Source: Blastocatellia bacterium
Lineage (GTDB): Bacteria > Acidobacteriota > Blastocatellia > RBC074
Direction: 5' to 3'
Length of the DNA stretch: 64,000 nt
Assembly (NCBI GenBank): GCA_035331565.1
Contig: DAOLKO010000004.1
Location: 239,802 to 303,801, forward strand
Positions 9,552 to 52,594 of the stretch are shown in pieces. The stretch's first letter is position 1. The number at the start of each line of letters is the position of its first letter. The translations under genes were made by a program, and so were the position numbers. The notes under the pieces were generated by a model. The model did not search any database. It had not been told where the DNA came from and saw only the letters and a list, made by a program, of their open reading frames with translations.

Positions 9552-10328
9552 ATGAACGATCACCTAAAATCCAACGTTTACGAGCGATGCGTCGCAGCTT
9601 GGGCGATTGAGGAATTTGATTTCATCGATATCACGGTCACTGCGAATGCGAAGATTCGCGGCCAAATCAGTGGTAGATATCGCCAAGTCGATGTCCTGTT
9701 GGAAGACAGAACCAAAGGCAACCCAAAAGCCCGCGTAATTGTGGAAGCCAAGCTACATGGTCGTCCTATAGATATCGAGGTTGTAGAAGCTACGGAAGCC
9801 AAGCTTCGTGATGTGAATGCCGCCCATGCGGTAATCGTGTCATCAGGTGGTTTCACCAAATCAGCAATTCGCCGTAGCGAAGAGTTCATTGAGTTGACGC
9901 TATTGGGTTACGATCAACTGGTTAACGAATACTCGGATGCGTTCGATAACTGTCTTGCTGATAGTAACTGCGACTTAGAACTTTTATGGTCTGTCGAAAA
10001 GATAGATGGAGCCGGTCCCGGCTGGCTTATGTACAAATACGGCAAGTGCCTCCGCTGCCACACGTTTCACATCCTTTGTCGTGACTGCGATAGCGAATTC
10101 CCAGTTCCAGATGGCCACACTGTGAGGTGTGGATGTGACGACCGAGAATGGGGGGCAATTCCAGAATCAGAAGCGTCAGGCCACACGGGCACTCCAGAGT
10201 CGACATGGCTAATGCTGAGGCTTAATGATGAATTCTACGGATTGCAAAGAAAACCCATTAGCAAGGTCACTTCTCAGATTAACCGGCACGAGAACCACGG
10301 AGGTTGTAATGGTAACGGCGCAAGCTGA
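9552..10328 (+). CDS. Mrr-cat-like restriction endonuclease-fold protein with C-terminal Cys-rich zinc-finger region
   Basis: PD-(D/E)XK-like motif (QVDVLLED...ARVIVEAK). C-terminal CLRCH...CRDCD...CGCD cysteine cluster. Local GC is about 48%, against about 60% in the flanks. Confidence 0.5.
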   Translation: MNDHLKSNVYERCVAAWAIEEFDFIDITVTANAKIRGQISGRYRQVDVLLEDRTKGNPKARVIVEAKLHGRPIDIEVVEATEAKLRDVNAAHAVIVSSGGFTKSAIRRSEEFIELTLLGYDQLVNEYSDAFDNCLADSNCDLELLWSVEKIDGAGPGWLMYKYGKCLRCHTFHILCRDCDSEFPVPDGHTVRCGCDDREWGAIPESEASGHTGTPESTWLMLRLNDEFYGLQRKPISKVTSQINRHENHGGCNGNGAS

Positions 10329-10914
10329 AGCACTTGAACCGAAAGCTTATAAATTGACCGTCGAGGAGTATTCCCGGATGGCGAAAATAGGCATTTTCGA
10401 CGGCAAGCGCGTGGAATTGATCGAAGGGGAGGTGATCGAGATGAGCGCGATGGGCAGACCGCACGTGATTGCGTTGAATAAAACGGCGGATTTGCTGAAG
10501 CGGATTTTCGCCGACGGCTGGTTCGTGCAGACGCAAGCGCCCTTGCGATTCGGCAAACGTTCGGAGCCGGAACCCGACATCGCCGTCATCAAAGGCAAAA
10601 TGGAAGATTACCCAACCGATCACCCAACCACTGCGGACTTAATTATCGAGGTGTCGGACCAAACCCTGAATTACGACCGCAAACGAAAAGCGAGCTTGTA
10701 CGCAAAGGCCGGGATCCAAGATTACTGGGTACTCAATCTCAAAAAGCATCAACTCGAAATTTTTCGCCGCCCCGTTCCCGACGCCGAAGCCCGGCACGGT
10801 TTCAGCTATGAGGATCAACAGGTGGTGAAAGAGAGCGAATCCGTCTCGCCGCTCATCAAACCCGATGCGGCAATTGCCGTCGCCGACTTATTGCCGCCGA
10901 CAAATTACAGATAG
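10309..10914 (+). CDS. Uma2 family (DUF820) PD-(D/E)XK endonuclease
   Basis: YTVEEY / ELIEGE / EPDIAV / DYxxK signature segments typical of Uma2/DUF820. Start is set at the internal Met (MVTAQAEALEPKAY). Confidence 0.65.
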   Translation: MVTAQAEALEPKAYKLTVEEYSRMAKIGIFDGKRVELIEGEVIEMSAMGRPHVIALNKTADLLKRIFADGWFVQTQAPLRFGKRSEPEPDIAVIKGKMEDYPTDHPTTADLIIEVSDQTLNYDRKRKASLYAKAGIQDYWVLNLKKHQLEIFRRPVPDAEARHGFSYEDQQVVKESESVSPLIKPDAAIAVADLLPPTNYR

Positions 10915-10922
10915 GGGTAAGT

Positions 10923-11528
10923 ATGGGAACGACTGTGTCGAAAACGCTGAAAACGGTTGTGATGGGACCGACGCCTCATCGCTGGACGCGCGATGAGTAT
11001 TACAAGATCGGCGAGCTTGGCTTTTTCGACGGCAAGCGCGTCGAATTGATCGAGGGGGAGGTGCTTGAAATGAGTCCTGTTTACAGCCCGCACGTCACGT
11101 CGGTTGTCGTCACGGCGGACATCTTTCGACTGGCGTTCGGCAAAGGCTGGGTTATTCGGGAAGAAAAGCCGATTAGCTTGGGGGCCAGTTCAGACCCGGA
11201 ACCTGACATTGCCGTCGTGGCCGGCAAAGCGCGCGATTACAAAGACGCTCATCCGACAACTGCGGCACTGGTGGTCGAGGTTTCCGATTCATCCTTGGCT
11301 TACGACAGAAATGAAAAAGCCGGCCTGTATGCCAAATCAGGCATCAAGGATTACTGGATCATCAACTTGCCGGATCGGCAGGTTGAAGTTTATCGCCGCC
11401 CGATTGCGGATAACGCGGCGGAGTTTGGATTCAGTTATGCCAACAAAATGATTTTCAAAGAGGGCAAGTCCGTCGCGCCGCTGGCCAAACCCAAAACCAA
11501 AATCGCCGTGGCGGAGTTATTGCCATAA
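10923..11528 (+). CDS. Uma2 family (DUF820) PD-(D/E)XK endonuclease (tandem paralogue)
   Basis: Paralogous to the preceding gene ([11 protein letters not shown]...VELIEGEV...EPDIAVV...[16 protein letters not shown]). Confidence 0.65.
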
Positions 11529-12872: not shown

Positions 12873-14657
12873 ATGGCAGCAGCACTCGGAAAAGAAGTCA
12901 TCAAAGGCGGCGCGTTTCTGCTTCAGGAAACGTTGCCCATCAGCGTGTATTCCCCGGAAGATTTCAACGACGAACAGAAATTGATCGGGCAAACCACAAC
13001 CGAATTTTTCGACAAGGAAATCATTCCCAACAGCGACAAGATCGAAAGCAAGGATTACGAAATCCAGCGCGAACTCATCAAAAAAGGCGCGGACCTCGGC
13101 TTGATTAATGCCAGCATTCCCGAAGAGTACGAAGGCCTCGAACTCGATCACGTCTCGAACATGCTCATCGCCGAAAACATGTCCGGGCAGGCGTCGTTTT
13201 CCACTGGTTTCGGTGCGACCAGCAGCATCGGCCTCTTGCCGATTGTGTTGTTCGGCACGCACGAACAAAAGAAAAAGTATTTGCCGAAGATCGGCTCCGG
13301 CGAATGGATCGGCGCGTATTGCCTGAGCGAATCCGGTTCCGGTTCGGACGCGCTGGCGGCCAAATCCACTGCGCGTTTGAGCGAAGACGGTCAGCACTGG
13401 ATTCTGAACGGCGAAAAAATGTGGATCACCAATGGCGGCTTCGGCGATGTCTTCACGGTTTTTGCCAAAGTGGACGGCCAGCATTTCACGGGCTTCATTG
13501 TCGAACGCAACGATGCCGGCCTCAGCAACGGCAACGAAGAACACAAGCTCGGCCAGCGCGGCTCTTCGACTACGCCGATTCTGATGCAGGATTGCAAAAT
13601 CCCTAAAGATCGTTTGCTTGGCGAAATCGGCAAAGGCCATTTGATCGCCTTCAACGTGCTGAATTTTGGCCGCATCAAAATGGGCGCAGGAGCCATCGGC
13701 GGCGGCAAGCGCGTGTTGTCGCAAGCCGCGAAGTATGCCGCGCAACGCCATCAGTTCGGACGTTCAATCGCCACGTTCGGCGCGATCAAATATAAGCTGG
13801 CAGAAATGCTGGCGCGGTTGTATGCGGGCGAATCCGCCGTTTATCGCACCGCCGGCATGATCGAAACCAAGGAAGAAACGATTGATAAAAAGAATCCGGC
13901 AGAATTGATGAAAGCCATTGAGGAATACGCCATCGAGTGCGCCATCATCAAAGTCGCCGGCACCGAAACGCTGTTTTATTGCGCTGATGAAAACGTGCAG
14001 ATTCACGGCGGCAACGGCTTTACCGAAGATTACCCGGCTGAAGGCGTGTATCGCGATTGCCGCGTCAACCGCATTTACGAAGGCACGAACGAAATCAACC
14101 GCCTGTTGATTCCCGGCCAACTCATCAAACGCGCCATGAAAGGCGGCTTGCCGCTGTTCCAGGCCGCGATGAAGCTGCAAGAAGAATTGCTGGCCGGGCC
14201 GTCGTTCGATATGGACGAAGACGATTCGCCGCTGGCAAACGAACGCAAACTGGCCGCCAACGCCAAAAAAATCGCCCTGATGCTGATCGGTTCCGCCGCG
14301 CAGAAATTCCAGGCCGCGCTGACCGAACAGCAAATGATTTTGAGCTGGGCGGCAGATGTCATTATCGAAGCTTTCCAGATTGACAGCGCCATTGGCCGCA
14401 CCATCAAGCTGATTGACCGCGACGGCGCGGACAAACACAGCTACGCGATTGATGCGACCAGGCTCTACACGCACGACGCCATCCTCCGCATCGAAGTCGC
14501 CGCGAAAAACGCGCTGGCCGCGATTGCCGAAGGCGACGAACTGCGTGTGATGCTGGTGGCGTTGCGCCGCCTGACCAAACAAGACCCCATCAACACCGCT
14601 GCCATCCGCGAACGACTGGCCGACAAAGTCGTCGAAGCGGGCGGCTATATTTTCTAG
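12873..14657 (+). CDS. fadE: acyl-CoA dehydrogenase, large (about 594 aa) FadE/AcdA type with ACAD C-terminal domain
   Basis: ACAD motifs (YCLSESGSGSDA, ITNGG, GGNGFTEDYPAEGVYRDCRVNRIYEGTNEI). AGGAGAG RBS 6 nt upstream of the ATG at 12873. Confidence 0.85.
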   Translation: MAAALGKEVIKGGAFLLQETLPISVYSPEDFNDEQKLIGQTTTEFFDKEIIPNSDKIESKDYEIQRELIKKGADLGLINASIPEEYEGLELDHVSNMLIAENMSGQASFSTGFGATSSIGLLPIVLFGTHEQKKKYLPKIGSGEWIGAYCLSESGSGSDALAAKSTARLSEDGQHWILNGEKMWITNGGFGDVFTVFAKVDGQHFTGFIVERNDAGLSNGNEEHKLGQRGSSTTPILMQDCKIPKDRLLGEIGKGHLIAFNVLNFGRIKMGAGAIGGGKRVLSQAAKYAAQRHQFGRSIATFGAIKYKLAEMLARLYAGESAVYRTAGMIETKEETIDKKNPAELMKAIEEYAIECAIIKVAGTETLFYCADENVQIHGGNGFTEDYPAEGVYRDCRVNRIYEGTNEINRLLIPGQLIKRAMKGGLPLFQAAMKLQEELLAGPSFDMDEDDSPLANERKLAANAKKIALMLIGSAAQKFQAALTEQQMILSWAADVIIEAFQIDSAIGRTIKLIDRDGADKHSYAIDATRLYTHDAILRIEVAAKNALAAIAEGDELRVMLVALRRLTKQDPINTAAIRERLADKVVEAGGYIF

Positions 14658-14683
14658 AGCTTGTGACGCAATCGCTTTAACCA

Positions 14684-14731
14684 GAATTCGCCCATCAATC
14701 TTTCCGATTGAAAAGATTGATGGGCGAATTC
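14684..14731 (+). terminator. Rho-independent terminator-like hairpin closing the fad operon
   Basis: Perfect 20-bp stem GAATTCGCCCATCAATCTTT / AAAGATTGATGGGCGAATTC with a 7-8 nt loop, 27 nt after the ACAD stop, followed by a T-rich stretch. Confidence 0.6.
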
Positions 14732-14801
14732 TCTTCAAAACTCTATCCATCGAGCGACGACCCATGGTTGCAGTTATAATTGCGTATCGAAAAAGGAGGC
14801 A

Positions 14802-15179
14802 ATGAAGATGTCAACGCAAACAATGGAACTGACGGTTGAAAACATTCTCTCGCTGATTGAAAAACTTTCCCTGCCCGACAAACTCAGATTGCGTAGTGCG
14901 CTCAATCAAACCGTGAAAGCGCCTTCCGCCGTTAAAGCGCCACTCGACAAGCGAGTGCCGTGCGAGCCAATGCCGGACAGAGCGCGCGAAAGGCAATGGG
15001 TGAAAGATCATAAGCACGAATATGCTGGTCAGTGGGTGGCGCTGGATGGCGACCAGCTTATTGCTGCCAGTTTCACTCAGCAGGAAGTCTGGGACACAAT
15101 CAATGCCGATAGTCCAAATCCGCCGCTGGTTTTGCGCGTGGCGTCTCCCGATGATCTGCCTTATGTCGGCATTCTTTGA
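14802..15179 (+). CDS. DUF5678-domain protein (antitoxin-like small protein)
   Basis: C-terminal YAGQWVALDGDQLIAAS matches the DUF5678 core. N-terminal helical segment TVENILSLIEKLSLPDKLRL. GGAGG RBS upstream. The stop overlaps the start of the next gene. Confidence 0.45.
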   Translation: MKMSTQTMELTVENILSLIEKLSLPDKLRLRSALNQTVKAPSAVKAPLDKRVPCEPMPDRARERQWVKDHKHEYAGQWVALDGDQLIAASFTQQEVWDTINADSPNPPLVLRVASPDDLPYVGIL

Positions 15180-15592
15180 AGTTTATGAAACAACTCAATT
15201 TCGATCAGGAATACGCTTACCCGGATGATGAGGAAGGTATCTCCATCGCAGTAAAGCTGGCTTATGCCGGACGTCGCTTTGAGGTGTTAGCCAAAGTAGA
15301 CCCAGGCGCTGCCGTCTGTCTTTTCAGTCGTGAAGTTGGATTGAAACTCGGCATTCCGATTGAGCAAGGAGAGCTGATCCGCCTTGGCACGCTGGGCGGT
15401 TCTCTGGAAGCCTTCGGCCACGAAGTGACGCTGCAAACGGGCGACATCGCGTTTCAGAGTTTTGTCTATTTCGCCAAATATTCTGGCTTGCAACGCAATC
15501 TGCTTGGGCGGCGCGGCTGGTTGCGCAACTTGCGGTTGGGCCTGATTGATTACGACAACCTGCTTTATCTGAGCGCCTACGATTCCAATTGA
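15176..15592 (+). CDS. retropepsin-like (clan AA) aspartic protease-fold protein, non-canonical DPG active-site variant
   Basis: AKVDPGAAVCLFSREVGLKLGI follows the retropepsin hhhDTGAs...LGL pattern but has DPG instead of DTG/DSG. The ORF track begins at a TTG at 15176; the first ATG is at 15185. Confidence 0.4.
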   Translation: MKFMKQLNFDQEYAYPDDEEGISIAVKLAYAGRRFEVLAKVDPGAAVCLFSREVGLKLGIPIEQGELIRLGTLGGSLEAFGHEVTLQTGDIAFQSFVYFAKYSGLQRNLLGRRGWLRNLRLGLIDYDNLLYLSAYDSN

Positions 15593-15593
15593 G

Positions 15594-15830
15594 ATGACGA
15601 CAAATTTTCAAATCATTGATGCCTGGGTGCAGCCGGCGCAGCGCGAAGCTTTCGAGAAGCTGCCGGAAGTCACCGCCCCAAACGTGATGGCCACGATTGC
15701 CGAAGGCGACGAACTGCGCGTGATGCTGGTGGCCTTGCGCCGCCTGACCAAACAAGACCCAATCAACACCGCTGCCCTCCGCGAACGTCTGTCAGATAAA
15801 GTCGTCGAAGCGGGCGGCTATATTTTCTAA
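15594..15830 (+). pseudogene. relic of the acyl-CoA dehydrogenase C-terminal domain (mosaic fragment)
   Basis: The last about 150 nt (15683-15830) are about 90% identical to the 3' end of the resident ACAD gene (14510-14657), encoding IAEGDELRVMLVALRRLTKQDPINTAALRERLSDKVVEAGGYIF. The 5' part, AWVQPAQREAFEKLPEV, corresponds to a diverged ACAD SWAADVIIEAFQID segment and is about 96% identical to a second relic at 51720-51770. Confidence 0.55.
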
Positions 15831-15838
15831 ACCAGATC

Positions 15839-15879
15839 AAAGCCTCAAGCACATACGCTACTTGTGTGCTTGAGGCTTT
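15839..15879 (+). terminator. hairpin terminator (AAAGCCTCAAGCACA...TGTGCTTGAGGCTTT)
   Basis: 15-bp perfect stem, 11-nt loop, followed by CTGTTCC. Confidence 0.5.
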
Positions 15880-15909
15880 CTGTTCCCGCCAACTCTTGCC
15901 AATCAACCT

Positions 15910-15971
15910 GATGTTGGGACACTTTTGGAGTGCGGTTGCTTGAAACCGCACTCCAAAAGTGTCCCAACATC
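15910..15971. terminator. 27-bp-stem palindrome between convergent genes (bidirectional terminator candidate)
   Basis: GATGTTGGGACACTTTTGGAGTGCGGTT gcttgaa AACCGCACTCCAAAAGTGTCCCAACATC, immediately 3' of the minus-strand BNR protein gene. Confidence 0.5.
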
Positions 15972-15995
15972 AGCGGCGGTACTGATTCGGCTATT

Positions 15996-18900
15996 TTATT
16001 TGATTCGAATGCGAACCGTGTTTGCCGTCAGGCCGTCAACGACGACCGTAACATCCACTTCGCCGCGCCCGATCAGCGTGCGCGGCAACAGCACGTTGAT
16101 TTGATCCAGACCGGTAAAGCCCGGCGCTTCGCTTGCGTAATCAGCGGGCAACGCCACGCCGCCCACCGTCACACGCACTGCGGACAGATTCGACCTTCGC
16201 CGCACGCCGGAGCCATAAAGCGCCAGGACGACTTGATCGGTTGCCGGTCCCAAATCAATTTCCGCCGGGACGAATTGATTGCCGGTGCTGTCGAATTGCG
16301 CGACCGGAAAGTAAGTCAGCGTGCCATTGCGCACGCGCACGGCTTGCGCGGCGGGAACGCCGCGTCCGCTGGCGTTGGCGGTGAAAAGCGCAGGCGCAAC
16401 CCGGCTGACGGTTTCAAGTCCGAACGCCGTTGCGCCGTTGCCGCTGGTGATTTTCACACTGACGTTGCCCGGTGCGACGGCGGCCGGCATCAGATAATTG
16501 ACCTGCCCCGGCGAAACGAAAAACAGCGGCGCGAGATGTTCGACGCCGGCTGAATCCGTCAACCGCACTGTAGTTCCGGCCAGTTGCGTCGGCAGAGGTA
16601 AGGTGGTCGCGGCTTGTGTGGCCGTCGCCAGATTGTTGCCGAAGGCCGCGACTATGCTTTCCAAGGCCAGCGCAGAGCGGCTAAAACTGGCCGCCGAAAC
16701 GGTGGTTGTGGCGTCAGGCAAATTCAAACGGAACATTCCGCGTCCGTGAGTGGCGACCACTATGCTGCGTGTGGCCGCGTGGTAACGAACCATAAACGAC
16801 GCCACGCGCGGCATACCGTTGCTCAGCCGCACCCAGTTCGCGCCTCCGTTAGTGGTTTGAAACACGCCGATGTCAGTGCCGATGAACAGCGAATTCTCGA
16901 TCATCGGATCCACAGCCACCGAAGTGACCGGCACATCCGGCAAATCGCCGCTGATGTCGCGCCAGCTCGCGCCTTGATTGTCTGTGACAAAGACGTGGCC
17001 GGGCGTGGTTGGCGTGGCCAGATTGAAGCCGGAATAGACGACATAAGCGCGATTGGTGTTGGCGGGAGACATTGCGATGTCGGTGATGAAGCGATTGGGC
17101 AGCGGCGCTTTGGTGACGTTGGTGAACGCGGCTTCGGCGAGTTTGCCGGCGTTGGTCGTCACTTGCACGTTGCCGTCGCTGGTTCCCACCCAAACGATTT
17201 CGCCGGGCGGCGTCGTGCTGTTGTCCAGCTTCGGATGCGCAGTCATAACAGTCACAGTGCCCGCGCCTTTCGACAAATCCTGTCCGAAGCCGTCCGCGCT
17301 CGGCCCCAGTCCAGTCCAGGTCACTCCCAGATCGGGTGAGCGGTAAACTCGCTGCGTTCCCCAGTAAATGACATTATTCGGTTCGGCGAAGCCCGTGTGC
17401 AGATTCATCGGCGAATAAAACCGCACGCGATCGTTGACGTTCATTCGTCCGGGCGCGACGGCGCAATTACGGCAGCCGCGATCCACGAAACTGTCACCGC
17501 CGTTAGTTGACAGGCGTGGGCCGAAACTGGCTGTGGTCGTGCCGGCGGCAGCGTTGTTCTGTGTGGATTGCCAAACGATGTTCGGCTTCGATTGGTCAAC
17601 CAGCGCGAAGCCGCCGTCGCCGCCGAAAATGCGCGTCCAGGCCGCAGTGCCTGTGAAGCGGTTGGTCCCGTTGTCCTGCGTGCCGCCGACCAAAAAGTCA
17701 GGGTTGGTCGGATGCATAGCCACGCCCTGAAACTGCACCGTGTTGAGCGTCTGATTCAGGTTCACCCAGGGAATGGTCGCGGCTTTGGCGTTGTCCGTGC
17801 GCCAGATGCCGCCGTCATTGGCGAGGAAGAAAATGTTCGGATTGGCACGGCTGACCGTGCTGTCATGTTGATCCACGTGAACGCCGCCGTCGCCGGTGCC
17901 GTTGACTTGCGTCGTCCAGGTCGCGCCGCCGTCCAGGCTGCGATAAAAATTGACCGCCCCCAGATACATCACATTCGCGTCGGATGGATCCACCGAAAAC
18001 GTCCAGTTGTAGCCGGCCTGACCGATGTTCGGCGGATTGGTCGGCGTCGCCTGCCAGTTTTCGCCATTGTCCGTCGAACGGAAAATGCCGTTGATGCCGT
18101 CGCCGTTGGCGATGGCGGCGTAATAGGTCGCAAACGTCGAAGGCGCAATAGGCGGCCCCAGCGTCAAATCAATGCGCCCCACGTTGGCTGACGGCAGACC
18201 GCCCGCCAGCAATTGCCAGGTGTCGCCGCCGTTGCGCGAACGATAAATGCCGCGCCCGTTCAGTGCAGCGTAAATTACGCTTGAATTCTGCGGATCGAAA
18301 ATCAGATCGTTGGCCGTAACGACGGTGTTGTTGCCTGCGACATCCAGAAAGCGCCAGGTTTCGCCGCCGTCCGTTGACTTCCACACGCCGCGCTGTCCAG
18401 CGGCATAACCCGTGATGCCGCCTCCGCCCGAAGGCCCGTAAGTCGTCGCCGTGCGCGTGCAAAGATAGATCGTCTGCGTGTTCGACGGATCAATGCCGAC
18501 GCGCATAATCGCCACGCCCTGAAAGGCCGGCACTTGCGGCGCGATGGCCGAAAGCGGCCCGGAAATCAATCGCCAGTTGTTGCCGCCGTCAGTGCTTTTG
18601 AGCAGACCTGCGCCGTAATAACAATCGCCGCTGGCATTGCCTTCGCCGGTTCCGGCATAAATCACATTGGGATTGGTGGGATCAATCGCCAGCGAGCCTA
18701 TGGCCAGCGAGGCTTCGCCGTCGGCAATCGGCGTCCAGTTCGCGCCGTTGTCCGTGGTGCGCCAGATGCCGCCTTGCGCCGTGCCCAGATAAAGCGTCTG
18801 GTTGGTCGTGCCGTTGTAATTCGGATGCAGCGCGATGGCCGTCGCACGCCCTGACACAGGACGTTGCGGCGTGCCGGTGTTACCGTTGGAAATCGGTTGC

Positions 18901-19229
18901 GGCCCCAGCGGCTGCCATTTGGGCTGACTCTGTTCGATGATTTCGGCTGCTTCCGCGCCATAGAGCCTGCGTAATTCCGCCGCGCGCAAAGCTTCGGTTC
19001 GTTCCAACTGTTCGACGGCTTCGGCGCGCGCGCCGAGCGGGATGTCTTTCAAAGGATAAGCGCGTTGTTCGACGAACCATTCGTCGGCTTTGGCCTTTTC
19101 GTCACCGGTTTCGACTTCGGCTTCGACCCGTGGCGCGTGCCCGGTCAACGCGCTCGCCAGAAACGCCAGTACCAGAACGAAGGGAAGAACTCGCGAAAAG
19201 AAAGCGCAAAGATGCCTGGTTGAATTCAT
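15996..19229 (-). CDS. large secreted BNR/Asp-box beta-propeller repeat protein with Solibacter-type C-terminal domain (Soli_cterm-like)
   Basis: More than 8 S/T-x-D-x-G-x-T-W repeats (e.g. GIWRTTDNGANWTPI, VWKSTDGGETWRFL, IYRSRNGGDTWQLL). Signal peptide after the start MNSTRHLCAFFSRVLPFVLVLAFLASALTG; GGAGA RBS. The last about 215 aa (...APGFTGLDQINVLLP...VRIRIK) resemble TIGR03437. Confidence 0.7.
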   Translation of the reverse strand: MNSTRHLCAFFSRVLPFVLVLAFLASALTGHAPRVEAEVETGDEKAKADEWFVEQRAYPLKDIPLGARAEAVEQLERTEALRAAELRRLYGAEAAEIIEQSQPKWQPLGPQPISNGNTGTPQRPVSGRATAIALHPNYNGTTNQTLYLGTAQGGIWRTTDNGANWTPIADGEASLAIGSLAIDPTNPNVIYAGTGEGNASGDCYYGAGLLKSTDGGNNWRLISGPLSAIAPQVPAFQGVAIMRVGIDPSNTQTIYLCTRTATTYGPSGGGGITGYAAGQRGVWKSTDGGETWRFLDVAGNNTVVTANDLIFDPQNSSVIYAALNGRGIYRSRNGGDTWQLLAGGLPSANVGRIDLTLGPPIAPSTFATYYAAIANGDGINGIFRSTDNGENWQATPTNPPNIGQAGYNWTFSVDPSDANVMYLGAVNFYRSLDGGATWTTQVNGTGDGGVHVDQHDSTVSRANPNIFFLANDGGIWRTDNAKAATIPWVNLNQTLNTVQFQGVAMHPTNPDFLVGGTQDNGTNRFTGTAAWTRIFGGDGGFALVDQSKPNIVWQSTQNNAAAGTTTASFGPRLSTNGGDSFVDRGCRNCAVAPGRMNVNDRVRFYSPMNLHTGFAEPNNVIYWGTQRVYRSPDLGVTWTGLGPSADGFGQDLSKGAGTVTVMTAHPKLDNSTTPPGEIVWVGTSDGNVQVTTNAGKLAEAAFTNVTKAPLPNRFITDIAMSPANTNRAYVVYSGFNLATPTTPGHVFVTDNQGASWRDISGDLPDVPVTSVAVDPMIENSLFIGTDIGVFQTTNGGANWVRLSNGMPRVASFMVRYHAATRSIVVATHGRGMFRLNLPDATTTVSAASFSRSALALESIVAAFGNNLATATQAATTLPLPTQLAGTTVRLTDSAGVEHLAPLFFVSPGQVNYLMPAAVAPGNVSVKITSGNGATAFGLETVSRVAPALFTANASGRGVPAAQAVRVRNGTLTYFPVAQFDSTGNQFVPAEIDLGPATDQVVLALYGSGVRRRSNLSAVRVTVGGVALPADYASEAPGFTGLDQINVLLPRTLIGRGEVDVTVVVDGLTANTVRIRIK

Positions 19230-19828
19230 AGTGATTTCTCCTGAACAAGGCGCGGACTCGGCGTCGGCGCGGGGTTGGCAATGACCATTTGGTAACGATT
19301 GGATTGGAGGTGCGCCGGTCAAAGACGGCCAGACCGGCAATTTCCGCAATTCAGTGCAACGAAGGTGCGGCGCAGTCTAAAAAAACGGTGTGGGCTTTTC
19401 AACCTGGTGCTTACCGCCGGAAATACCTTTCCGGCGGTAAGCGAGCGCTTTGCCGGGATGCTGTTGGCTATGTTCTCTTGCCGCAAATGTAAGTAGTGAA
19501 CTGATGTCCGGACACCGTTTGGGGTGCGGCAGCTGGGGGGGGCGGTAGCTGAAGGATAACGTTGGGAAACTCATTGCCCTGAAACCGGATACCTAGGACC
19601 GGAAACCTGACTACCAAAAAACCTTTTGAATCACACGGCACAGTCCAGTGCCGTCGCTCCCAAAAACGGGCGACGGAACAGTGCCGCCGCCACGTTTTTC
19701 TTTCCAGTCAAAAGCGGGCCGATCAACCAGGCTGTGCCGTTCGGACAGCCGCGCCAGAGCAATGTAACCGTACCCATTCACTTGATAAATCGGCGTTTTG
19801 CGCGGCTGACGTTGCGCTACGCTGCCGA

Positions 19829-51477: not shown

Positions 51478-51798
51478 CTTTGATTTAGAAGATGTAACCG
51501 CCCACTTCGACGACTTTGTCAGCCGGCCGTTCGCGCAGCGCAGCCGTGTTAATCAGGTCTTGCCTGGTCAGAGGGCGCAACGCCATCAGCATCACGTGCA
51601 GTTGTGCTTGTCCGCACCGTCAATGCCGGTGCGATCCATCTCAGCAATGATTTGCGCGGCGGTTAATCCGGTTTCCGGCAATTGCGCCAAGCCGGATTGT
51701 TTGAACAAGCGGACGACTTCCGGCAGCTTCTCGAAGGCTTCGCGCTGCGCCGGCTGCGCCCAGGCGTTGATGAAAGTTGAGTTTTTCATATTGGACAA
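51478..51798 (-). pseudogene. second, frameshifted relic of the acyl-CoA dehydrogenase C-terminal domain
   Basis: Minus-strand reading gives ...INAWAQPAQREAFEKLPEV...EMDRTGIDGADKHNCT*, then a shifted frame LHVMLMALRPLTRQDLINTAALRERPADKVVEVGGYIF*. It is collinear with the ACAD C-terminus (...SWAADVIIEAFQID...LIDRDGADKHSY...LRVMLVALRRLTKQDPINTAAIRERLADKVVEAGGYIF). Confidence 0.55.
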
Positions 51799-51882
51799 AC
51801 CGTGCCGACGTAAAGCAGGTCGTCAGGCGAAGGCATGCGATGAATGGTTGGGAGTTCCGCAACTTCCGATACTATCTCCGGC

Positions 51883-52473
51883 TTATTTCAGCGGCGGCGT
51901 AATCATGATGTGCGCGCCGGGCGTGCCTGCATCCATCAGCCAGGGTTCGCCGCGTTTCGGCGTTGTGGAAAGACCTGTGGATTGGGCTGTCGCATAAGGC
52001 ACGTAAATCACCCAACGCACGGAACCTTCAATCACTTTCTTGGTCGCCGTATCGAACCCCTTACCCGAAAGCACGTAAAGCATGCGCGGTTCTTTAGGCA
52101 TGCTCAGCTTCCCTTCCTTGATTTCTTTCCAGCGGTAATTGTCGTTGCGATTTCCACCGGTGATGCCTTGCGCCGTCAATTGGCGGCCTCGCGCCATGAA
52201 TGGTTCCAGGTCTTTGTGGTAACAGGCCGCACTGAAACGATTGTCTTTCGGATCGTCGGCCAGACAGATCAATTCGTTCGTGCCTTTGCGCAGTTCGATC
52301 AATTTGCCGTCCGCGCCATAACCAAGCACCGCCGCTCCCGCGCGCAGTTCTTCAGGCGCGGCCTGAACCGTGGCGGCGATTTGATCTTCCGCCGAAGGCA
52401 CAGCCGGAGCAGCGGTCTGCGCAGCGGCAGTCATTGAAAACAACACCAGAGCGAACAAAACAGAAGCTTTCAT
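51883..52473 (-). CDS. secreted hypothetical protein
   Basis: Signal peptide MKASVLFALVLFSMTAAAQ. No recognisable catalytic motif. Confidence 0.4.
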   Translation of the reverse strand: MKASVLFALVLFSMTAAAQTAAPAVPSAEDQIAATVQAAPEELRAGAAVLGYGADGKLIELRKGTNELICLADDPKDNRFSAACYHKDLEPFMARGRQLTAQGITGGNRNDNYRWKEIKEGKLSMPKEPRMLYVLSGKGFDTATKKVIEGSVRWVIYVPYATAQSTGLSTTPKRGEPWLMDAGTPGAHIMITPPLK

Positions 52474-52548
52474 TTTCTCGATCCTCCAAAAAAGTTTTTT
52501 TACCTGCAAACAACAACATCCTTTTCTCTTTGCGGCGAGCGCGAGCTT

Positions 52549-52594
52549 ACCGGCCTACCGGCCTACCGGCCTACCGGCCTACCGGCCTACCGGT
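52549..52594. repeat. octanucleotide microsatellite (CCGGCCTA) x5.5
   Basis: taccggcctaccggcctaccggcctaccggcctaccggcctaccgg. It overlaps the stop codon of the 52587..53045 gene and lies about 75 nt upstream of the next minus-strand gene. Confidence 0.8.

Follow-up and report, generated by a model that had tools for sequence, protein, structure and literature searches.

What are two small, tightly spaced genes doing directly behind a fatty-acid degradation (fad) operon? The question is raised by a 64,000-nucleotide stretch of the Blastocatellia bacterium contig DAOLKO010000004.1 (positions 239,802 to 303,801 of the forward strand), hereafter called the window. The first gene encodes a protein with a DUF5678 domain, here called the partner, and the second a retropepsin-like aspartic protease in which the active-site motif reads D-P-G (DPG). 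We propose that the pair may be a self-contained, horizontally mobile, type II toxin-antitoxin (TA)-like module with an aspartic protease as its effector, a proposal built on sequence comparisons to which we give about as much credence as doubt. The assignment of the effector role to the protease is suggested by the gene order, the tight spacing, the multicopy occurrence, the decay of the protease gene, the faster evolution of the partner and the antitoxin-type N-termini of partner proteins. Multiple copies, unrelated genomic contexts, asymmetric protease decay, a faster partner and these N-termini also give comparative support to the TA-like character that a first-pass annotation of this DNA had suggested.

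Both proteins have hundreds of close homologues (E-values down to 1e-83 and 1e-75) and the pair is therefore not made up of chance open reading frames (ORFs). They are identical to proteins from a Blastocatellia metagenome-assembled genome (MAG) that are named 'DUF5678 domain-containing protein' (P0121) and 'retropepsin-like aspartic protease' (P0001) at NCBI. The profile hidden Markov model (HMM) comparison that the first-pass annotation had proposed as a check upheld the partner, which scores 29.1 bits against DUF5678 (PF18929; residues 72-106) with a gathering threshold (GA) of 23.2, and left the protease narrowly below the threshold of Asp_protease_2 (PF13650; 23.6 bits, GA 24.3). The score against gag-asp_proteas (PF13975) was 16.5 bits (GA 28.2), and a precomputed PF13650 match is carried by 12 of the 120 close protease homologues listed. 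Structural comparison points to the protease fold that had been claimed, though at marginal scores. With an AlphaFold model of moderate confidence (pLDDT, the predicted local distance difference test score, of 68.5), the top 24 Foldseek matches in the PDB were HIV-1 and HIV-2 proteases and the Rickettsia protease APRc (5c9f), with template modelling (TM) scores of 0.4-0.55 (0.53 for 5c9f) and a probability of 1.0, the best E-value being 1.2e-3 and none lying at or below 0.001. A sequence search of the PDB returned no chain matching the protease, and PHROGs gave no match. Across 47 aligned close homologues D39 and G41 are invariant, as are a flap-like A-F/Y-G-H-E motif and the motif RNLLGRxGWLRNL, the counterpart of the LLGR(D/N) signature of retropepsins. 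A signal or membrane segment was not recognisable at the N-terminus when judged by eye. An exhaustive profile search extended the family to 1041 clusters at 50% identity (E <= 1e-3), nearly all of about 135 amino acids.

The pairing of the two genes was followed in a GTDB scan with one genome per species, which gave 56 protease loci, 55 of them with upstream sequence, and in a metagenome scan seeded with a 13-sequence subset of distant proteases from a clade about 35-45% identical, which gave 80 loci. In the GTDB scan, upstream partners were called with HMMs built from homologues. A DUF5678 gene lies directly 5' on the same strand in 54 of the 55 GTDB loci and in all 70 metagenome loci with enough upstream sequence (124/125 in total). 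The pair is thus conserved in other genomes, as the first-pass annotation required of it, and adjacent, co-directional small genes are kept together in the manner of type II TA systems. All 56 GTDB loci apparently belong to Acidobacteriota MAGs, including 16 with 'Heliomicrobium'-type titles that were taken as mislabels, and, with Granulicella among the named carriers, the family extends over two acidobacterial classes or more. Nearly all related loci examined in soil Acidobacteria have the two genes together. The two genes are mostly separated by a gap of 2-8 nt or share an overlap of 1-4 nt, with overlaps of up to 7 nt in the metagenomes. In the window the gap is 5 nt, since all homologues and the NCBI model start the protease at ATG 15185 (M-K/T-Q-L), and the identical gap recurs in 20 of 42 related loci. 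Both ORFs reported in the first-pass annotation are real and lie where it placed them, between the ACAD (acyl-CoA dehydrogenase) hairpin and the duplicate of the ACAD 3' end, while the overlap it described exists only if translation begins at TTG 15176. Translation of the protease is likely to be coupled to that of the partner.

The surroundings of the pair differ from locus to locus. Homology at the DNA level is restricted to the pair itself, and among the 100 immediate neighbours 111 unrelated Pfam families are represented, most of them metabolic. Single MAGs carry up to six copies, and on some contigs pairs stand in tandem. The fad operons orthologous to that of the window (L140 and L141, with ACAD 94% identical) contain no pair. 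In them ACAD is followed, after a spacer of about 15-80 nt (as called), by an Amidohydro_2 and then a Lactamase_B gene, and synteny with the window ends at the ACAD stop codon. This supports the insertion of the pair that had been supposed, and multiple copies, patchy distribution and unrelated contexts are again what is seen with type II TA systems. These data also bear on whether the pair could be an accessory of the fad operon with an ACAD-linked function. Its position directly 3' of ACAD on the same strand would fit such a role. However, ACAD is adjacent in none of the 136 other pair loci (L001-L056, L060-L139), the orthologous operons do without the pair and a strong hairpin separates it from ACAD, and we regard this explanation as effectively refuted.

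The architecture of the partner is modular. Its AlphaFold model (pLDDT 81) comprises two N-terminal helices (residues 10-33), a disordered linker, a folded alpha-beta-beta-alpha-beta domain (residues 59-110) that holds the DUF5678 core (W..HK.EYAGQWVALDG..L), and a disordered C-terminal tail. There is no solved structural relative for the DUF5678 domain with its tail, and a PDB sequence search with the partner was empty. In the family alignment, the tail residues P114, D115, D116, L117, P118, Y119, G121 and I122 are conserved to at least 90%, and across family members the tail always occupies the extreme C-terminus. Its wording varies by clade, with ..PSPDDLPYIGI in the window's clade, ..(E/D)xxDELPFGGW in the distant clade and other acidic-then-hydrophobic variants besides; a peptide from the tail reads ..RVASPDDLPYVGIL. 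The N-terminal part is exchangeable. Weak matches to the VapB15-antitoxin N-terminus are found in 21 of 50 close partner homologues (best E 3e-4; scores well short of the family cut-off), and 4 of 71 distant-clade partners, encoded upstream in L060, L062, L063 and L064, fuse an AF2212-like (DUF104) antitoxin domain (PF01954, E 2e-12) to DUF5678. Other partners carry N-termini of unrelated types or lack one; 68 of the 71 distant-clade partners match PF18929. Some partners have an N-terminus of the 'IVVNEDGAFIPRQLFG' type, which no Pfam model matches and which appears AbrB-like by eye. Another form, of about 202-219 amino acids, carries two DUF5678 domains in tandem (P0122, P0123, P0126, P0128, P0129, P0138, P0193; L015:4388-4993), with the conserved tail on the second repeat only, and may reflect the stoichiometry of the complex, retropepsins acting as dimers.

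The two genes decay unequally. Both are intact in 39 of 59 modules, while an intact partner accompanies a damaged protease in 14 (frameshifted in 10, partial in 2, absent in 2) and the converse, a broken partner with an intact protease, was found once. No intact protease occurred without an upstream DUF5678 gene in these modules, one such gene being itself frameshifted. Because the search for loci started from the protease, any bias would be towards too low a count of orphan partners. Between loci the protease averages 61% identity and the partner 47%, the protease being the more conserved in 97% of locus comparisons, and the divergences of the two are correlated (r = 0.74).

This joint divergence could also be expected if the protease served a dedicated substrate, trimming the tail or linker of the DUF5678 protein, which would then be the functional output. 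By analogy, ImmA cleaving ImmR and RimB trimming RpsF tails may serve as models for such a switch. The strict conservation of a tail that is always C-terminal agrees with it, as does the action of the known bacterial retropepsin-like proteins RimB and RloA on acidic tails (PMC12239564). We nevertheless consider a protease-substrate switch unlikely. A processing enzyme and its substrate are not readily reconciled with a two-gene module in unrelated contexts, with up to six copies per genome and no evident downstream target, and the frequent loss of the protease with retention of the partner is more readily understood if the protease is dispensable or harmful than if it is an essential processing enzyme. 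The antitoxin-type N-terminal domains of partners likewise speak against it.

For a TA-like module, the following course of events may be envisaged. The DUF5678 protein, made first, would be the cognate neutraliser and regulator, and the protease, translated by coupling 5 nt downstream, would be the effector, a cytoplasmic homodimeric aspartic protease. The partner would bind the protease through its DUF5678 domain, and its tail would probably act as a pseudo-substrate that fills the cleft or the dimer interface and holds the dimer inactive. The variable N-terminal module, whether two-helix and VapB15-like or AF2212-like, would serve in dimerisation and possibly in operator binding. If the partner is labile, its loss would free the protease to cleave cellular targets. 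One may speculate further that retropepsin-fold proteases are the toxins of a large undescribed TA or abortive-infection family of more than 1000 clusters, in which the tail plugs the cleft or dimer interface and toggling between Thr and Pro tunes dimer stability and toxicity; this extension is tentative, and we consider it rather unlikely.

As a special case of the TA-like reading, the pair might be an abortive-infection or anti-phage system whose latent protease effector is freed on infection. The main lead comes from PADLOC, where members of the protease family weakly match PDC-M52B (8/53, best E 1e-6) and PDC-M08B (10/53). Immediately 3' of the pair in one locus (L059:6453-10024) lies a complete Gabija system, consisting of a GajA-type OLD/TOPRIM ATPase and a UvrD-like helicase, and GajA accounts for 2 of the 100 immediate neighbours. 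A close relative (L057) has a different gene at the Gabija position, indicating a variable spot beside the pair, and the pair itself is present in some close relatives and absent from others. Against this, the neighbours are overwhelmingly metabolic genes, the partner matches no PADLOC A component, and the PDC systems are themselves only candidates. A dedicated role in phage defence thus seems distinctly unlikely.

The active site of the window protease departs from the catalytic D-T/S-G motif, and the alignment of the active-site loop called for by the first-pass annotation confirmed its DPG. This variant is frequent close by and rare further away. Among the 120 closest homologues listed, 88 have DPG, 23 DTG, 3 DSG and 2 DCG, while 128 alignable representatives of the wider family have DTG in 113, DSG in 5 and DPG in 3, with the Asp kept in 125. 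A neighbour-joining tree with Fitch parsimony places Thr at the root and implies that Pro was gained or lost at least 13 times (at least 13-17 switches among Thr, Ser, Cys and Pro). The DPG subset is as conserved as the DTG/DSG subset (column entropy 0.66 versus 0.63 overall, 0.38 versus 0.41 in the active-site loop and 0.28 versus 0.28 in the LLGR region), the flap being the only region that is more variable in DPG proteins (0.52 versus 0.33), so that DPG is not a sign of decay. As far as alignments can tell, the DPG variant is a secondary state that arose repeatedly within a canonical DTG family and is under purifying selection. Decaying pseudo-enzymes were considered for the DPG copies and rejected, their conservation equalling that of the DTG copies.

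In HIV-1 protease the hydroxyl of Thr26, the 'fireman's grip', stabilises the dimer. A DPG protein has no Thr or Ser hydroxyl to offer at this position, and the repeated toggling of the residue would also be compatible with a catalytically dead, retropepsin-fold scaffold that binds peptides, the pair in the window's clade acting by binding alone. We hold such a pseudo-enzyme to be very unlikely, since Asp39 and Gly41 are invariant in 47/47 sequences, DPG and DTG proteins are equally conserved apart from the slightly more variable flap, the same partner tail accompanies both DPG and DTG copies and DTG is the ancestral and majority state. The first-pass annotation was therefore right that the motif is non-canonical here, and its suggestion of inactivity finds no support in the invariant Asp and Gly, the conservation of DPG proteins or the DTG of the wider family. 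The window copy is an ordinary family member with a DPG variant.

Several observations weigh against the pair being a TA-like module with a protease effector. We know of no described TA toxin that is an aspartic protease. The literature searched contained nothing relevant on a DUF5678-retropepsin pair, an aspartic-protease toxin or PDC-M52, absence elsewhere not being proven by this, and its only mention of DUF5678 was in an unrelated plant-pathogen study; effector class and antitoxin domain are both undescribed for TA-like modules. A charge contrast between acidic antitoxin and basic toxin was looked for and rejected, partner and protease both being acidic with isoelectric points (pI) near 5. 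The N-terminus of the window partner scores 17.6 bits against VapB15, where the cut-off is 80, and its two-helix module is at most a putative DNA-binding domain. The placement of the tail in the cleft is purely conjectural. The Pro of DPG removes the dimer-stabilising hydroxyl, and the window copy may have low activity. Frameshifts in MAGs can be sequencing errors, though errors would hit both genes equally. Enrichment in defence islands was not seen at the GajA count given above (2/100), and neither protein has a homologue in IMG/VR viral contigs or in phage and plasmid collections.

How the pair came to lie behind ACAD can be read in part from its flanks, whose features are collected in Table 1. 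A direct repeat of 165 nt, matching at 149 positions, links the ACAD 3' end (14493-14657) to 15666-15830 and encloses the pair, its right copy forming the ACAD part of a relic. The relic of the ACAD 3' end that the first-pass annotation described is thus present, and it is only a part of a chimera. Relic codons 1-26 (15594-15671) correspond to the start of the amidohydrolase gene that follows ACAD in the relatives, with 74% amino-acid identity to L140 over 15603-15671, and at a GAAGTC microhomology (15666-15671) this part is joined to the last 54 ACAD codons. In the relic the amidohydrolase fragment precedes the ACAD 3' end, opposite to the native order of the two genes, and the junction is the expected product of a tandem duplication or of a circularised segment comprising the ACAD 3' end, the spacer with the pair and the amidohydrolase 5' end.

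A second, decayed composite copy lies on the opposite strand of the window (Table 1) and combines remnants of the same four parts. Its deletion removed the protease. It is found 3' of an unrelated 208-aa gene (51883-52509) without Pfam match, whose product has a hydrophobic, signal-peptide-like N-terminus and is predicted to be secreted. Just 5' of that gene a tandem repeat (CCGGTAGG) occurs about five times at 52545-52592, read on the minus strand. Both copies can be derived by different internal deletions from one precursor, in which the pair was followed by amidohydrolase codons 1-57 joined to the last ~79 codons of ACAD, and the pair travelled or was duplicated together with the amidohydrolase fragment.

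Between the direct repeats there are the two genes and the relic only, and no recombinase. A site-specific integrative element was accordingly considered and rejected, the 165-nt direct repeat notwithstanding, since no integrase or recombinase is present. In view of this absence, we propose that the module was carried along when host DNA beside it recombined through homology or microhomology, either by duplication in situ or through a circle that integrated at the 3' end of ACAD. A donor/recipient polarity between the two ACAD 3' copies was also sought and rejected, as the base differences are mixed and the relic is only slightly more diverged. The same arrangement is seen wherever flanks suffice on all 15 contigs encoding the identical protease, showing that the structure is fixed in this species.

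Table 1. Features of the pair, its flanks and the second copy (window coordinates; dG, predicted folding free energy)
Feature	Position	Strand	Remarks
Acyl-CoA dehydrogenase (ACAD) gene	12873..14657	+	594 aa; last gene of fad-like operon; Pfam ACAD domains
Hairpin, perfect 21-bp stem	14683..14732	+	just past ACAD stop; dG -33 kcal/mol, z -8.3
Ribosome-binding site GGAGG	14795..14799	+	8 nt before ATG 14808; read from sequence
DUF5678 partner gene	14808..15179	+	123 aa; alternative ATG at 14802
Partner C-terminal tail, acidic-hydrophobic, ASPDDLPYVGIL	15144..15176	+	family alignment
Retropepsin-like aspartic protease gene	15185..15592	+	135 aa; PF13650 just under GA
Active-site codons GAC CCA GGC (D39-P40-G41)	15299..15307	+	DPG variant of D-T/S-G
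Chimeric relic ORF	15594..15830	+	78 aa; begins 1 nt past protease stop
Hairpin, 16-bp stem	15840..15880	+	3' of relic; flanked by A-run and T-run; dG -29 kcal/mol, z -6.8
Sortilin/BNR-like gene, convergent	15996-19349	-	downstream flank
Second, decayed composite copy	51485..51866	-	within window
Second copy: last 21 codons of DUF5678 gene	51804-51866	-	18 bits against family HMM
Second copy: first ~8 protease codons	~51768-51790	-	alignment score with spacer 43; shuffled mean 15, maximum 25
Second copy: amidohydrolase codons ~6-57	51622-51783	-	comparison with amidohydrolase of relatives
Second copy: ACAD 3' end with ~100-nt internal deletion	51485-51603	-	starts at equivalent of 14421, unique 17/20 match

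The ACAD protein at the left flank has the same sequence as P0391, and its orthologues are 93-95% identical. The strong hairpin behind it, which the first-pass annotation called a terminator, has the perfect 21-bp stem but no T-tract or U-tract and is absent from the terminator-scan list; it is a possible terminator. For the DUF5678 gene ATG 14808 is the best start, at 8 nt from GGAGG. An imperfect palindrome, GCAGTTATAATTGC, at 14770-14790 overlaps a TATAAT box about 25 nt 5' of this start, as seen by eye, and is a candidate promoter/operator for autoregulation. Between the relic and the sortilin/BNR-like gene lies a 66-nt palindrome (15908-15973; dG -60 kcal/mol, z -11.7) whose stem consists of 31 perfect base pairs. 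Its arms are unique within the window, and it may be a terminator acting in both directions or what is left of a small repeat element. Neither Rfam nor tRNA scans of the window gave a match. Three small nuclease-like genes stand on the plus strand inside the fad operon, between the FadB-like and thiolase genes (Mrr_cat, 9552-10328; Uma2, 10225-10914; Uma2, 10923-11528), where L140 has a single Uma2 gene and L141 has none. Spacers in the fad operon thus seem to collect small, apparently selfish genes repeatedly.

If the TA-like reading is true, retropepsin-like aspartic proteases would be a new enzymatic class of TA or abortive-infection effectors, and the DUF5678 domain would gain its first functional context. 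The size of the family and the near-constant pairing offer a clean system in which to study the silencing and the targets of a free-standing prokaryotic retropepsin, and the natural DTG/DPG polymorphism is a ready test of the requirement for a 'fireman's grip' outside retroviruses. The chimeric relic and the decayed second copy suggest in addition that such modules can move when the host DNA around them recombines, and need not carry a recombinase.

Among known systems, the bacterial retropepsin-like enzymes include the membrane-embedded APRc of Rickettsia (PMC4140852; PDB 5c9f) and RloA and RimB of Pseudomonas, a secreted group that trims acidic tails (PMC12239564), and none of the three is described as part of a two-gene module (PMC4140852; PMC12239564). 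Like them, the window protease is about 100-140 residues long, has an active-site loop of the D-T/S-G-A type and, going by its model, probably a single-lobe clan AA fold, and the tail of its partner is acidic like those on which RloA and RimB act. Unlike them, it has no N-terminal signal or membrane segment recognisable by eye, is always paired with DUF5678 and carries DPG. The PADLOC candidates PDC-M52 and PDC-M08 are likewise two-gene systems, with a small B protein weakly similar to the active-site region of the protease. This similarity is weak, however (E 1e-4 to 1e-6 in 8-10 of 53 members; 5e-4 for the window protease), and with a DUF5678 partner that corresponds to neither A component the likeness does not extend to both components.

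The Xre/ImmR and ImmA/IrrE (COG2856) systems are comparable to the pair in placing a small regulator-like protein beside a dedicated protease and in being mobile as a pair. ImmA, however, is a zinc metalloprotease in the service of a mobile element, whereas the window protease belongs to the aspartic class and the pair occurs by itself, without element cargo.

The comparison with type II TA systems, such as VapBC with AF2212-like (DUF104) or VapB15-type antitoxins, extends over more features. In both cases two small co-directional genes are separated by a very short spacer with the putative antitoxin first, and divergent copies occur in unrelated contexts within a genome. The first protein is modular in both, with a swappable N-terminal domain of antitoxin type and a partner-specific C-terminal part, and the second gene is the more conserved and the first to be lost. 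The pair differs from these systems in its putative effector, which has a predicted retropepsin fold and is not of the PIN, RelE, MazF or similar kind, and in its putative neutralising part, which consists of a DUF5678 domain and a conserved C-terminal tail.

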